From Deltaproteobacteria bacterium (GTDB lineage: Bacteria > Myxococcota > Kuafuiibacteriia > Kuafuiibacteriales > Kuafuiibacteriaceae), in the NCBI GenBank assembly GCA_040218735.1, contig JAVJQW010000070.1, forward strand, positions 224,001-288,000: a DNA stretch of 64,000 nucleotides, in the 5' to 3' direction. The position numbers were made by a program, and so were the translations under genes. This document shows, piece by piece, positions 6,165-11,367 of this stretch. Within the stretch, counting starts at the first letter, position 1; every line of letters starts with the position of its first letter. The notes beneath the pieces are model-generated. The model was not told the DNA's origin, did no database searches, and was given only the letters and a program-made list of their open reading frames with translations.

Positions 6165-6598
6165 CGCTCGACCCAGATCGTCACCGGGCCGTCGTTCAAG
6201 AGCTCCACCTTCATGTCCGCGGCGAAGCGCCCCGTCTGAACGTCCGGCACGTAGCCCTTCAGCAGCTCGACGAAGCGCGCGCACGCACCCTCCGCGAACT
6301 CGGGCGCGCCGGCCTCCACGAAGCTCGGCCGGTTCCCCTTCTTCGCGTTGCCGTACAGCGTGAACTGGCTGACGACCAAGACCCCGCCGCCGGTGTCGAC
6401 GACACTGTCGTTCATCTTGCCGTCGGCGTCCGTGAAGATGCGGAGCGACGCGCACTTCTTCGCCATCCAGGCGAGGTCCTCGTCCGTGTCGCCGTCCTTG
6501 ATGCCGACCAGCAGGAGGAGGCCCGGCCCGATCTCTCCGACCGTCTCCCCCTCCACCTTCACACGCGCGTACGCGACGCGCTGCACGAGCACCCGCAT
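6161..6598 (-). CDS. dtd: D-aminoacyl-tRNA deacylase
   Basis: 'MRVLVQRV', 'SQFTL', 'KGNRPSF', 'NDGPVT'. Start at 6598 is coupled to the upstream stop. Confidence 0.95.
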   Translation of the reverse strand: MRVLVQRVAYARVKVEGETVGEIGPGLLLLVGIKDGDTDEDLAWMAKKCASLRIFTDADGKMNDSVVDTGGGVLVVSQFTLYGNAKKGNRPSFVEAGAPEFAEGACARFVELLKGYVPDVQTGRFAADMKVELLNDGPVTIWVER

Positions 6599-9327
6599 CA
6601 GGTCCGCGGCGGCCAGAGCTGCTCGGCCGCCACGTCGGCGGCCGGCGGCTCCGCGAGCAGGCGCGGCGAGATCCGAAGGTTCTCCACCGCCGTCGACGCG
6701 AGCACCCGTCCGCACGCGTCGTAGACGGCGTCGCCGTCGATGCCCTGGTACTTGTACACGTCGACCGGGCGGCCGCACTTCGACGCCTTCCGCACGCCGA
6801 GCACCTCCGCCTTCACACCAACGACGCTGCCGAGGTTGTCGACGATGCCCGGCTCGCCGTCGACGAGCGCCACCAGCGGGACGCGCCGCCCCGCGACCGA
6901 GACGAGGTCCGCGCGGTCACGGATCTCGATGGCCCCGTTCGAAGCGCCGTTCGCGCGCGTGATGTGCAGGTCACCGGTGATGCCCAAGCCTTCGCGGAGG
7001 TGACGGTAGTCGTTGTCGTGCGCGAGGTTGCCGCAGAGCAGATCGCCGCACGTCACGACAATGACGTTGGCGTAGATGCCCTCCTCGAGGAGCCGGTCGG
7101 ACGCGGCGAGCGCCTCCGTCCCGAGCGCACCCATCGAGAAGATGTTCACGACGTTCTCACCCGGCTCGTACCCGGCCGCGCCGCGGTGGTCGACGAGGTA
7201 GTAGCCGCCCTCGAGCGCGTCCTTGCGCGTGGTCTCGAGGATGTCCTCCTCGCTCCACCCCTCGAACCGCGCCGCCTTCGACAGGCGCTTCATCATCTCC
7301 GGCTGCTGCACCGCGCGCGTCACCGCGCGGATGATCACACCCGTGCGGTTCTTGTTGTCGCGCAGGTAGTGGCGCCGCACGGCGTCGGAGAGGATCCAGT
7401 CGATCTCCAACGAGTAGAAGGGCTCCCAGATGATGACGTTCGGCATCCCGATGTCGCTCTTCCAGCTGTGCTGCGCCCCCTCCGGCGCGAGCGTCACCCC
7501 CGACGGCGTCCCGACGCAGATGAACGACGAGCCCCAGTACAGGTTGTAGTAGAGCTGGTCGAACGCACGCTTGATGAAGAAGTCGTAGACGGTCATCACC
7601 GGCAGGAACGGGATGCCGACGTGGTCGTGCATCTTCCCGAACGCACCGACCGCCGACATGCAGTTCGCCTCCGCGATTTCGAAGCGGATGTGCCGCGCCC
7701 ACGCGTCCTCGTGCGGCGCCAGCTTCGGCCGACGACGGTCCGCGACGCCGAGCGCCTCCTCGTAGTCCTCCGAGTGCTCCGGCCCGTAGATGCGATCGTC
7801 CATCGCGGGGTTGATGTTCGTCGACGTGCCCACGTCCGGCGCCATCGTCAGGAACATGTCCGCCGCGGGGCCCCACCGCTTCTCGTCCCCCTCGAGCGGC
7901 TCCTGGGGCGCGTTGCCGTTCCGGATCGGCTCGTACGCGTTGCCGATGCGGATGATCTTCGCGGCGAGCTGCCCCCACACGTACTGCGTGTGCACGAGCG
8001 GCAGGTACTTCAGGTTCACGCCGAGCGTCTCCGGCAAGCCGTCTTGCACCGCCGAGTCGAAGCGCGTGACGTTGTCGTCCTTCAGCGCCCAGATCGCCTC
8101 CTGACCTTCGCGCATGATCTTGCGTCGCTCGGCGAGGAACGCGCCCGGCTCGGTGTCCTCTGCGAACAGCTCGAACGGCGCGTCGTTGTCGAGCCCCTCG
8201 CTCTCGAGGAGCGCCTCCACCTCGTCGCCCTTCGGCACCGCGTTGTGGTTGCCGGGCGCCGCGTAGCTCTCGAGGCCCCAGCCCTTGATCGTGTGCGCGA
8301 CGATCAGCGTCGGGTTGATCGGGTCGAGCTTGCTGCGCCGGAGCGCGTCGAGCATGACCGCGACGTCGTGGCCGCCGAGGTCCGCGAAGATCGCGTAGAC
8401 CTCGTCGTCGCGGTACTCGGCGAGCGCCTTCTCGAGCTTCTTGTCGAGCGCGACGAGGCGCTCGCGCACGACGCTGCCGTCGCGGCGGAGCACCAACATC
8501 TGGAACTCGAAGTCCGAGAACGCCTCCTCGAGCACCTTGCGGAGGACGGCGCCGCCCTCCTTCTCGAACGCCGCGAGGCGCTTGCGACCGTGCTGCGCCT
8601 GGATGACGTCCCACCCGTTGGCGACGCAGACGCGCTCCATGCGCGAGGCGTCGGTGCCCCGGATGCCGCGCATGTTCGGGATGCGGGTGCCGTCGAGGTT
8701 CTGGCGGTTGTAGTCGACGATCCAGGTGACGTTGCCGAGCTCGCGCTCGGCGGCGTCCGGGAGCGCCTCCATCAGCGAGCCCTCGCGGAACTCGGAGTCC
8801 CCCATCAGCGACCAGAAGTGCGCGTCCTTCGGCACACGCAGCTTGTGATCGTCCGCGTAGCGGTAAGCGAGCGCGGTGTAGATCGAGACCACCGGCGGGA
8901 TGCCGACCGAGCCGGACGGGAAGTAGACGTTGCCGTCCGGGTCGCTCTCCGCGTGGTAGCTCTGGAACACGGGCTCGCCGTTCTGCGAGAACTTCCGCAG
9001 GCGGTACATGACCTCGGCGCCCTCGTCGTCCGAGAGCCACTTGCGACCGTAGGGCTCGTGGAACATGCCCATCAGGTAGTTGAGCGAGTGATCGACCGGC
9101 GAAGCGTGCGGCTTCACGGCGATCAGGTCCTGGGGCTGCCGCACGCCGAGGTGCAGCGCGGACATGATGTGAACGCAGGACGAGCAGGCGGCGGGGTGCC
9201 CGCCGACCTTCGGATCGCCCTCCATCACGTCGTCGCGGTGGTTGGCTTCGTAGATCATCTTCGTCGCGTAGACGAAGGCACGGCGCGCGATGCGCTCGAT
9301 GACGGCGACTTCCTTGGGGTCCCTCAT
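6598..9327 (-). CDS. aceE: Pyruvate dehydrogenase E1 (homodimeric AceE/transketolase-like ThDP enzyme)
   Basis: 'KVGGH', ThDP motif 'GDSE(X)nWIVDYNRQNLD', 'HTIKGWGL', 'FEIAEAN', 'YDFFIKR', 'TLAPEGAQH'. Confidence 0.8.
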   Translation of the reverse strand: MRDPKEVAVIERIARRAFVYATKMIYEANHRDDVMEGDPKVGGHPAACSSCVHIMSALHLGVRQPQDLIAVKPHASPVDHSLNYLMGMFHEPYGRKWLSDDEGAEVMYRLRKFSQNGEPVFQSYHAESDPDGNVYFPSGSVGIPPVVSIYTALAYRYADDHKLRVPKDAHFWSLMGDSEFREGSLMEALPDAAERELGNVTWIVDYNRQNLDGTRIPNMRGIRGTDASRMERVCVANGWDVIQAQHGRKRLAAFEKEGGAVLRKVLEEAFSDFEFQMLVLRRDGSVVRERLVALDKKLEKALAEYRDDEVYAIFADLGGHDVAVMLDALRRSKLDPINPTLIVAHTIKGWGLESYAAPGNHNAVPKGDEVEALLESEGLDNDAPFELFAEDTEPGAFLAERRKIMREGQEAIWALKDDNVTRFDSAVQDGLPETLGVNLKYLPLVHTQYVWGQLAAKIIRIGNAYEPIRNGNAPQEPLEGDEKRWGPAADMFLTMAPDVGTSTNINPAMDDRIYGPEHSEDYEEALGVADRRRPKLAPHEDAWARHIRFEIAEANCMSAVGAFGKMHDHVGIPFLPVMTVYDFFIKRAFDQLYYNLYWGSSFICVGTPSGVTLAPEGAQHSWKSDIGMPNVIIWEPFYSLEIDWILSDAVRRHYLRDNKNRTGVIIRAVTRAVQQPEMMKRLSKAARFEGWSEEDILETTRKDALEGGYYLVDHRGAAGYEPGENVVNIFSMGALGTEALAASDRLLEEGIYANVIVVTCGDLLCGNLAHDNDYRHLREGLGITGDLHITRANGASNGAIEIRDRADLVSVAGRRVPLVALVDGEPGIVDNLGSVVGVKAEVLGVRKASKCGRPVDVYKYQGIDGDAVYDACGRVLASTAVENLRISPRLLAEPPAADVAAEQLWPPRT

Positions 9328-9420
9328 GGCTGTGGTCGCCTGTTAGACCAGGACGCCCCGCCCCGCCACAACCACGTACTTTTGCCGGTTGACGGCCTCG
9401 CGCGACTCGGATAAATAATA

Positions 9421-9437
9421 TTGAGAATGGTTCTCAA
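9421..9437. promoter_or_regulatory. Fur-box-like palindrome 1, overlapping a likely + strand promoter (-35 TTGACG at 9389-9394, AT-rich -10 region at 9411-9421)
   Basis: TTGAGAA-TGG-TTCTCAA is an inverted repeat with perfect 7-bp arms matching the TGATAATnATTATCA 7-1-7 Fur core, in an AT-rich patch of a 70% GC genome. Confidence 0.7.
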
Positions 9438-9565
9438 AATCAGTTGAGTCCCCTTTGCCCGGCGCCGACACGAAACCGAATTCGATGCATCGACCCCTTA
9501 CCCGCGAAGCCTCGAAACACTCTTGGTCGGTTCGTCGTCGGCGCCGGGGTGTGCTTCACCCCGCG
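9424..9565 (+). ncRNA. Candidate Fur-regulated structured RNA (sRNA or leader)
   Basis: About 21-bp stem 9458-9479/9527-9548, an overlapping alternative hairpin 9545-9563, and C-rich single-stranded motifs. Boundaries are inferred. Confidence 0.4.
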
Positions 9566-9610
9566 CGACCGATGGGGTATCTGCGCAGTTGCCAGGATGT
9601 AGGCTGATTT

Positions 9611-9625
9611 CGATAATCATTCGCA
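9611..9625. promoter_or_regulatory. Fur-box-like site 2
   Basis: CGATAATCATTCGCA versus TGATAATnATTATCA, about 30 nt upstream of the 9654 ATG. Confidence 0.65.
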
Positions 9626-9653
9626 GAATCAGGCCGATTCGAACGACGACCGC

Positions 9654-10223
9654 ATGCGCACCCTCTTCCCGAGCGCCCTGACGCTGATCCTCACGTTCGC
9701 CGCGACGCCCGCGCACGCCGACGAGGACGTGTACTTCACGACGAAGAGCGTCCTGAAGTCGTTCTTCAAGACCTCGAAGAAGGTCACCTACGTGAAGATC
9801 GACGCGAAGGCGAACCGCGACGAGCTCCGTCGCACGCTCGGGTACGTCCCGAACAAGAAGACGTACGCGGTGTTCGTCGCGAAGACCGGTGAGCACATCG
9901 ACGGCTATGCACTGGTCGACGAGGAGATGGGCCAGCACCTCCCGATCACGTTCGCGGTGAAGTTTTCGCCGAACGGCACCGTCGAGCGCACCGAGGTCAT
10001 GGTCTACCGCGAAGGGTACGGCGACGAGATCCGCGAAGAACGTTTCCGTCGCCAGTTCGTCGGCAAGGCCACCCGCGATCGCTTCTCGCTCGGCGACGAC
10101 ATCATCGCGATCTCCGGCGCCACCATCTCCGCCAAGTCCATGGCCATCGGCGTGAAACGCGCCGTCGCGCTCGTGGCGCTGGCACGTCGCGAGCTCGGGA
10201 CCGTCGCCAGCACGACGCCCTGA
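9654..10223 (+). CDS. Exported FMN-binding domain protein (predicted covalent flavinylation)
   Basis: Signal peptide ending 'AHA', 'YREGYGDEI', flavinylation motif 'DIIAISGATIS'. Confidence 0.85.
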   Translation: MRTLFPSALTLILTFAATPAHADEDVYFTTKSVLKSFFKTSKKVTYVKIDAKANRDELRRTLGYVPNKKTYAVFVAKTGEHIDGYALVDEEMGQHLPITFAVKFSPNGTVERTEVMVYREGYGDEIREERFRRQFVGKATRDRFSLGDDIIAISGATISAKSMAIGVKRAVALVALARRELGTVASTTP

Positions 10224-10783
10224 TGCGTGCGTTCGCGAAGCCGACCCCGATCGGTCGGCTCTCGGTCGAAGCGCGCGTCGTCTACACCGCGTTCTGCGTG
10301 TTCATGCTGCTCGGTTACTTCACGAGCGCGTGGCTCTACCTCGACGACGACCTCGGCGTGCGCCCCGCCGACACCGAGCGCTACTACCTCGGTGAGGAGA
10401 CGACGGATGCCTCGACGAGCGACGACGGTCCGGCGCTCGACCTCCCCGAAGAGGACGCCCTCCCCGACCAGGCGCTCCGCCTCGAAAAGCCCGCGCGCCA
10501 GGTGATGGAGACGTTCCACTTCCACCTGTTCTCGATGCCGGTGTGCCTGCTGATCATCGCGCACATCTTCATGATGTGCGGCGTGTCCACGCGCCACAAA
10601 GTGGTGTGGATCGGCGCGGCCACGGTGACCACGTTCGTGCACCTCGTGACGCCCGTGTTGGTGCGCTTCGTCTCCCCCGGCTTCGCGTTCCTCATGTTCC
10701 CGAGCGCGGTGTTGATGGGGGTTTCGTGGCTGTACCTAACCGGCCGCCCAGTGCTCGAGATGTGGTCCCCGAAGGCGTCCTGA
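10223..10783 (+). CDS. 4-TM His-containing membrane protein of unknown function
   Basis: Four hydrophobic helices; 'ETFHFHLFSM...AHIF', 'FVHL'; TGATG coupling to the FMN-binding gene. Confidence 0.75.
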   Translation: MRAFAKPTPIGRLSVEARVVYTAFCVFMLLGYFTSAWLYLDDDLGVRPADTERYYLGEETTDASTSDDGPALDLPEEDALPDQALRLEKPARQVMETFHFHLFSMPVCLLIIAHIFMMCGVSTRHKVVWIGAATVTTFVHLVTPVLVRFVSPGFAFLMFPSAVLMGVSWLYLTGRPVLEMWSPKAS

Positions 10784-11041
10784 GCGTTCGATCGCCGTCC
10801 ACCCGAGCGCCGCCGCGACGGCGGTGATTCGTTCGTCCGCGTCGTCCGCCCAGACGTCGATCGTCGCCACGCCGAGCTCGGGCCAGGTGTGCACGACGAT
10901 CGTCGACGCCGCCGCGAAGTACGTCGCCGAGAGGCCGTGCGGCGCCCAGCGCCACGTCACCCCTTCACCGAAGCGCGCGCGCAGCGCATCGAGGGTCGGC
11001 TCGTGGGCGCCGATCGCCCAGGTCCCGAACGCGTGATTCAC
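10736..11041 (-). CDS. Degenerate S-adenosylmethionine decarboxylase-like protein
   Basis: 'PHGLSATYFAAASTIVVHTWPELGVATIDVW' aligns with SpeD 'P.GVT...LAESHISIHTWPE.GYAA.D' but lacks ESH and the downstream Cys. GTG start overlaps the upstream TGA (GTGA). Confidence 0.6.
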   Translation of the reverse strand: MNHAFGTWAIGAHEPTLDALRARFGEGVTWRWAPHGLSATYFAAASTIVVHTWPELGVATIDVWADDADERITAVAAALGWTAIERSGRLRGPHLEHWAAG

Positions 11042-11367
11042 GACGCCCCTCGCTCCACGCGCTGCACCGCGCACCGTTCGAACCTGAACACCTCACGCAG
11101 TGTTCGCACCGCGAGGTCTTCGTCGAACGCTCGGCACGAGAAGACGTCGGCGTGCACGGCGCGGCCTCGCGTGTGGATGCTGATGTGGCTCTCGGAGATC
11201 AGGACGATGCCCACCACGCCGTCCGCCTGGGCGCGGATCTGCGGGGGTGCGACGGCGGTCAGCGCGAGGCGCTCCACCAAACACACGAGCGCCCGCTCGA
11301 CGCCGGCTTCGTCCAACGCGGCGGTGCAGTCGTCCGCGTCGATCAACAGGTGTACGCCGAGCGACAC
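11038..11367 (-). CDS. speD: S-adenosylmethionine decarboxylase-family pyruvoyl proenzyme
   Basis: 'GVHLLID', 'GVVGIVLISESHISIHT', 'DVFSC'; the E-S self-cleavage site is intact. Substrate is uncertain because the family includes Arg/Orn decarboxylases. Confidence 0.75.
   Translation of the reverse strand: MSLGVHLLIDADDCTAALDEAGVERALVCLVERLALTAVAPPQIRAQADGVVGIVLISESHISIHTRGRAVHADVFSCRAFDEDLAVRTLREVFRFERCAVQRVERGAS

Follow-up and report, generated by a model that had tools for sequence, protein, structure and literature searches.

Two Fur-type boxed promoters and a strong predicted hairpin upstream of an FMN-binding protein gene in a Myxococcota genome

The region considered here is a 326-nt intergenic region (9328-9653) within a 64,000-nucleotide stretch of DNA, hereafter the window, to which all positions given without a genome or contig label refer, from the 11.6 Mb, 68.8% GC genome (G000) of an uncultured Myxococcota lineage. 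It is bounded on one side by a divergent transketolase-family gene encoding 909 aa (6598-9327, minus strand), whose sole domain match is Transketolase_N and which, from the look of its sequence, we take to be pyruvate dehydrogenase E1-like. On the other side lies the gene for an exported 189-aa protein with an FMN-binding domain (PF04205; 9654-10223, plus strand), to which a gene for a 186-aa membrane protein without a Pfam match is coupled (10223-10783, plus strand). Five relatives of the FMN-binding protein (P0002-P0006) are 66-81% identical to it, the closest 70-81%, and the source names of its relatives are mostly Myxococcota or Deltaproteobacteria; in two related genomes, G004 and G006, the membrane-protein gene likewise stands directly 3' of the FMN-binding gene. 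At 10736-11367 on the minus strand, two adjoining short ORFs both match S-adenosylmethionine decarboxylase (PF02675), being either paired in tandem or split.

Two putative promoters, each associated with a palindromic Fur-type box, can be recognized in the intergenic region. The upstream promoter, P1, has a -35 hexamer, TTGACG, which on reading the sequence lies at 9389-9394 (plus strand) as the earlier note had placed it, followed by an AT-rich candidate -10 region (9411-9420) and by box 1 (TTGAGAATGGTTCTCAA, 9421-9437), which was recovered by a palindrome scan; transcription would probably start near 9424-9427. The -10 assignment stood in part: the AT-rich region that had been proposed is present, but AATAAT lies 19 nt from TTGACG and is not canonically spaced, which is why a consensus scan missed P1 and returned only TTGCCA-17-GATAAT at 9589-9617, and two positions of the P1 -10 region vary between near-identical strains. 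The match returned by the scan, P2 (plus strand), is a sigma70-type promoter with 10 of 12 consensus matches, against a shuffle mean of 0.1, and a second box, box 2, overlies its -10 at 9611-9625, where a further Fur box had been predicted before the next gene.

The Fur consensus of our first scan was an assumed one; a degenerate palindrome scan located 19 sites genome-wide at no more than two mismatches, box 1 and box 2 among them. Of these, several fall within coding sequence and have the look of chance matches, and others lie upstream of two TonB-dependent receptor genes (C42:447332 and C8:203867) and of a ferritin-family gene (C59:28768). Two Fur-family genes are present in the host genome (C8:248945 and C4:63728), and G004 and G006 each have one fur gene in their orthologous cluster. 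Because the box also stands before the TonB-dependent receptor genes and the ferritin-family gene, and because fur belongs to the orthologous clusters, we infer with good reason that the locus is under Fur-type control, and the Fur repression advanced in the earlier note is well supported by this recurrence.

In related loci (L078-L157) a Fur-type box is often found on the first codons of the FMN-binding gene itself, with an AT-rich hexamer just 5' of it and with N-termini that start on the box (e.g. MKIVF and LRTVIKI). The nearest box cluster opens the FMN-binding gene in frame in 54 of 63 box-bearing loci (80 were examined, which are related and not independent), and box and gene frames are distributed as 52, 1 and 8 of 61. 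Such a placement suggests leaderless mRNAs in which the operator may double as coding sequence, an arrangement for which our literature search returned no paper.

Among 19 other genomes of the family, the FMN-binding gene was found in three and the divergent transketolase-family gene in seven, with neither found in the same-genus genome G001 (75% complete); the two genes lie 5 kb apart in G004 and 10 kb apart in G006. Boxes orthologous to box 1 occur at G004:C1:1683782 and G006:C9:1681589, and in an ungapped alignment the host, G004 and G006 all have TTGAC(G/A) at a distance of 26 nt from the box that follows. The palindrome first noted at 9421-9437 recurs both before iron genes and in two relatives. 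In G004 an ATG 10 nt 3' of the box opens a PMT_2-family gene. Two lipoprotein-like genes and then one porin-like gene come next, and beyond another box-like site lie, in order, the FMN-binding gene, the membrane-protein gene and fur; the lipoprotein-like and porin-like labels were given by eye without a passing Pfam match. In G006 a 140-nt leader and then a single lipoprotein-like gene lie between two boxes, in a cluster that contains ApbE and fur; box-like sites are present upstream of the orthologous FMN-binding gene in both relatives. Given the ATG after the G004 box and the lipoprotein-like gene after the G006 leader, P1 fronts a protein gene in both. The genes that separate box 1 from the FMN-binding gene in G004 and G006 had no tblastn match in the host genome at E 1e-8, the exception being the porin-like gene with weak matches of 26-27%. 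Since the first cluster genes went undetected in the host, P1 there faces a 170-nt non-coding stretch and then P2, and the layout of the window is, to judge from the sequences, that of G006 minus its gene. Control of the divergent 909-aa gene by box 1 was also considered, and is unlikely as an ancestral role given that the box is not next to that gene in G004 or G006. The leader hairpin of G006 is traversed by a 39-codon ORF (L034, 9629-9748) whose stop overlaps the GTG with which the following gene begins; in the window we saw nothing corresponding to it in that frame.

Downstream of box 1, RNA read from P1 is predicted to form a main stem-loop (9458-9548, plus strand) of 21 bp with two single-base bulges. 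Its arms at 9458-9479 and 9527-9548 are those that had been paired by eye, and the pairing was borne out by folding, with 9430-9625 giving z = -3.11 and none of 200 shuffles equalling it. Relative to an intergenic background drawn from our own gene calls, 14 of 709 regions 200-500 nt long contain an inverted repeat of equal strength, and 23 of 347 random intergenic windows of the host genome reach z <= -3; in its own genome the hairpin is uncommon, not unique. Two C-rich motifs, CCCCTT, one before the stem (9450-9455) and one in its loop (9494-9499; both plus strand), are predicted to be unpaired (P 0.65-0.99), in agreement with the single-stranded state first assigned to them, and two CCCCTT no more than 150 nt apart are found in only 2 of the 709 intergenic regions with the present locus counted. 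A second hairpin of 7 bp without a U tract, hairpin 2 (9545-9563, plus strand), overlaps the 3' end of the main stem as had been described; its predicted probability is 0.02 in a long transcript and 0.77 if the RNA stops at 9565, and in this modelled fold it could form the 3' end of the transcript. A terminator scan of the region found no hairpin with a U tract, but hairpin-plus-U sites are not enriched after genes of the host genome (6/600 versus 5/600 shuffled), and the missing U tract is therefore uninformative.

No Rfam family matches the stretch with the boxes and hairpins, with two chance-level matches elsewhere in 8500-10500, and the comparison with RyhB, PrrF and FsrA from which the earlier note started accordingly found no counterpart there. 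Searches by blastn, nhmmer and a covariance model of the RNA located no second copy of the stem or RNA in the genome, and the hairpin, being single copy, is not the dispersed REP-like repeat that it might have been. The host genome does carry dispersed elements of 100-160 nt with long terminal inverted repeats of GAACTTGCCC-type units, REP- or MITE-like and unrelated to the Fur-boxed hairpin (C60:198498, C41:261164, C41:288915, C52:240989, C18:182717, C18:172968, C6:62238, C20:23664 and C70:97818), as well as, at C29:950-1570, palindromic direct repeats of ~36 nt with unique spacers that are CRISPR-like by eye.

A contig from a near-identical strain, X4, spans the region and differs from the host in its intergenic part by six substitutions and two single-base deletions, i.e. 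8 differences in 326 nt versus 5 in 875 nt of coding flanks. Box 1 and the -35 hexamer are unchanged. One deletion takes out a bulge in the main stem, and the other leaves the first C run (the CCCCTT at 9450) one base shorter. By inspection, the three strain differences that fall in predicted stems are compatible with pairing (one bulge lost and two G-U pairs, one of the latter resting on a single contig at depth 4.5).

Homologues of the RNA were sought with DNA searches, sequence patterns and two covariance models, R1 from the present RNA and R2 from the G006 leader, each built from one sequence and insensitive. DNA searches of 60 other genomes gave just short chance matches and Fur boxes. 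R1 returned one match in 19 family genomes (E 0.17, within a coding region), missed the G006 leader among nine syntenic loci and reached at best E 1.4 in 80 related loci, and R2 matched nothing outside G006, the host locus included; the G006 leader itself has no Rfam match. A pattern of a box followed by CCCTT occurs in 8 of 401 genomes, and by inspection a non-coding hairpin follows solely in G000 and G006. A box plus AGCCTCGAA pattern identified 19 metagenomic loci, none of them homologous by inspection, while a stem-arm pattern identified eight loci in viral contigs, the best at 15 bits and accounted for by the pattern itself; a plasmid search gave five short matches (E 0.5), and no FMN-protein locus was confirmed in metagenome contigs. 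Given that models of one sequence are insensitive, this failed search bounds the claim of a homologous RNA without closing it.

The leader of G006 has a similar layout at the corresponding position. It contains two CCCTT and one CCTCC, and its hairpin has a z of -1.0 to -1.7. It has one 8-mer and one 9-mer in common with the host RNA, but the likeness is not significant, with 295, 799 and 521 of 1000 shuffles scoring as high and, for shared 8-mers, 124 of 2000 doing so. When 17 long or tandem-box leaders were folded, z lay above -1 in 15, the exceptions being G006 (-1.4) and L152 (-3.6), which looks coding.

Judged by the motifs and predicted fold, the two Fur-type promoters form a real pair, and the hairpin that lies between them is unusually strong and apparently unique. 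The best reading, to which we assign a probability of roughly 45%, is that the hairpin belongs to the structured leader of a Fur-repressed operon. P1 would be a Fur-repressed promoter retained from the start of an iron-gene cluster of the Myxococcota; in relatives it would drive the first genes of that cluster, and in the host it would transcribe ~230 nt of non-coding sequence before reaching the genes for the FMN-binding and membrane proteins, which are served as well by their own Fur-boxed promoter, P2. The structured 5' leader after P1 would be lineage-specific. At low iron, Fur would come off both boxes and P1 and P2 would both fire, with the hairpin acting in cis, where it would either protect the 5' end or reduce read-through, and having no targets in trans. 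This scenario is favored by the fixed spacing of P1 and box 1 in G004 and G006, by the position of P1 before a protein gene in both of these relatives, by the failure to find their intervening genes in the host, by the presence of two box clusters within 450 nt before the FMN-binding gene in 9 of 80 related loci, and by the lack of both an iron-protein target signal and an RNA homologue. The same count bears on the suggestion that the second box marks the product of P1 as a separate RNA: the box pair is there, but, as 9 of 80 related loci have two box clusters, two boxes alone need no separate RNA. What fits a leader less well is that a near-perfect box and -35 look redundant before a boxed P2 unless the RNA matters, that 15 of the 17 other long or tandem-box leaders are unstructured, and that the double unpaired CCCCTT is rare and a C-rich hairpin is found in the G006 leader too. 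Moreover, with U-tract terminators not enriched in this genome, hairpin 2 could end the transcript.

It is less probable, and on balance somewhat unlikely, that P1 produces a discrete Fur-repressed sRNA acting in trans, extending over ~9425-9565 and ending at hairpin 2, with its C-rich motifs blocking ribosome-binding sites; iron sparing would be the most likely role of such an RNA if it is real. A conserved boxed promoter of its own at a site where the next gene has P2, the strong fold, the rare and unpaired double CCCCTT, the similar layout in the same position of G006, the pairing-compatible strain differences and the uninformative nature of the missing U tract are all consistent with this reading, but the leaders of G000 and G006 show no significant likeness, models of either miss the other, and the first CCCCTT is one base short in X4. 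Predicted targets also argue against it. When three single-stranded segments were scored for duplex energy with each of 8740 predicted start regions, 30 iron-protein genes showed no shift (p = 0.18, 0.91 and 0.54), in a test that is crude in relying on our own gene calls and on duplex energies only, with some genes operon-internal. AAGGGG occurs in none of the 30 iron-protein start regions versus 102 of 8740 genes, and AAGGG in one of 30 versus 270 of 8740; a seed search found no iron target in common by inspection. The most promising target, an hpf-family gene (PF02482; C9:168075-168623, minus strand) whose start region would pair over ~13 nt with 9443-9456 at -25.1 kcal/mol, covering the ribosome-binding site, was rejected as chance, the G006 pair reaching only -9.5 kcal/mol.

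The discrete iron-sparing sRNA put forward as a candidate in the earlier note has gained no support from these sequence analyses, with no homologue in the searches above, no enrichment at iron-protein starts, and the corresponding promoter in G004 leading straight to a protein gene. The evidence does not yet extend to an iron-sparing sRNA, and we regard as unlikely the specific proposal of a discrete Fur-repressed, C-rich sRNA for iron sparing in the present Myxococcota lineage, of which the G006 hairpin would be a diverged counterpart.

Improbable too is a non-functional relic, composed of P1 and the decayed 5' ends of lost cluster genes, in which the inverted repeat would be a rearrangement scar. 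Box 1 can be read as eight codons followed by a stop (9421-9447, plus strand), resembling the N-termini that start on the box in related genes, and the intergenic region is more variable in X4 than its coding flanks; box 1 and the -35 hexamer are nevertheless intact and unchanged in that strain. Under the best of three scorings, 9562-9576 matches a G004 cluster gene start at 14/15 nt (67 of 3000 null windows did as well) and 9479-9502 another such start at 20/24 nt (13 of 3000 did), yet these two matches occur in reversed order, are weaker under the other two scorings and come from five targets tried, and are marginal.

The remaining readings have very little probability. A switchable leader, which the earlier note had offered in place of an sRNA and which would be a riboswitch or attenuator, would regulate the genes that follow by alternating between hairpin 2 and the main stem, and the overlap of hairpin 2 with the 3' arm, together with several C4/G4 runs that could pair alternatively, would allow some competition; the core pairs stay formed at P > 0.999, however, and the exchange predicted between the two folds is limited to the outer 3-4 pairs, so that this is not a switch, while the start codon lies 90 nt farther on, P2 bypasses the leader and the region lacks an Rfam family match. 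Equally hard to credit is a small protein expressed from P1, since of the two open frames, 40 aa from 9485 and a four-cysteine 52 aa from 9444, both have GC3 values (0.60 and 0.67; the median gene has 0.90) no higher than those of the bottom 0.1% of called genes, neither has a visible ribosome-binding motif 5' of it and the longer is frame-shifted in X4 by the two deletions, so that the ~170 nt originally described as devoid of a credible ORF remain so.

In IsrR of Staphylococcus and FsrA of Bacillus subtilis, too, a Fur box covers the promoter and C-rich motifs stay unpaired on a stem-loop scaffold (PMC9410917), and the present RNA could by analogy work in a similar mode. IsrR, however, is conserved genus-wide, ends in a canonical Rho-independent terminator and has Fe-S enzyme mRNAs as predicted targets (PMC9410917), whereas for the present RNA we found neither a homologue nor a U tract, and neither enrichment at iron targets nor any relation in sequence. 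C-rich seeds are described there as discriminating well in AT-rich genomes (PMC9410917), in contrast to the 69% GC of the host. In view of the missing Rfam match and the failed target test, the RNA is not filed as an IsrR/FsrA-type member. RyhB of enterobacteria and PrrF1/2 of Pseudomonas are likewise Fur-repressed and intergenic, but have no Rfam match in the present region; both are stated to need Hfq (PMC9410917), and Myxococcus xanthus is described as being without Hfq (bioRxiv 10.1101/2025.09.11.675593). Pxr and MXnc1 of M. xanthus are also stem-loop RNAs of myxobacterial intergenic regions and are reported to bind near Shine-Dalgarno sequences, but Pxr controls development and, in the accessible part of that preprint, neither is tied to iron or Fur (bioRxiv 10.1101/2025.09.11.675593); the present stretch has no Rfam match to either. 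Clusters associated with flavinylation (ApbE / FMN-binding) have been connected with the reduction and uptake of iron (PMC8238504), and the locus resembles them in its exported FMN_bind protein downstream and in the ApbE and fur of the G006 cluster. That account, as far as its available text goes, concerns proteins and no RNA element (PMC8238504), and in the host the upstream cluster genes were not found.

Iron-sparing sRNAs are described as unrelated across enterobacteria, Pseudomonas, Bacillus, Staphylococcus and Mycobacterium (PMC9410917), and none was described for the Myxococcota in the literature searched, from which subscription papers largely fell outside. If the hairpin is a leader only, the locus would be an ordinary Fur-controlled promoter pair, whose chief use would be to help chart the iron regulon of this uncultured lineage. 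Were the sRNA claim true, it would represent a further independent origin of an iron-sparing sRNA, arising in a genome whose high GC content should make C-rich seeds poor discriminators, and one in which the sRNA would have been born from an mRNA leader that gene loss left behind.
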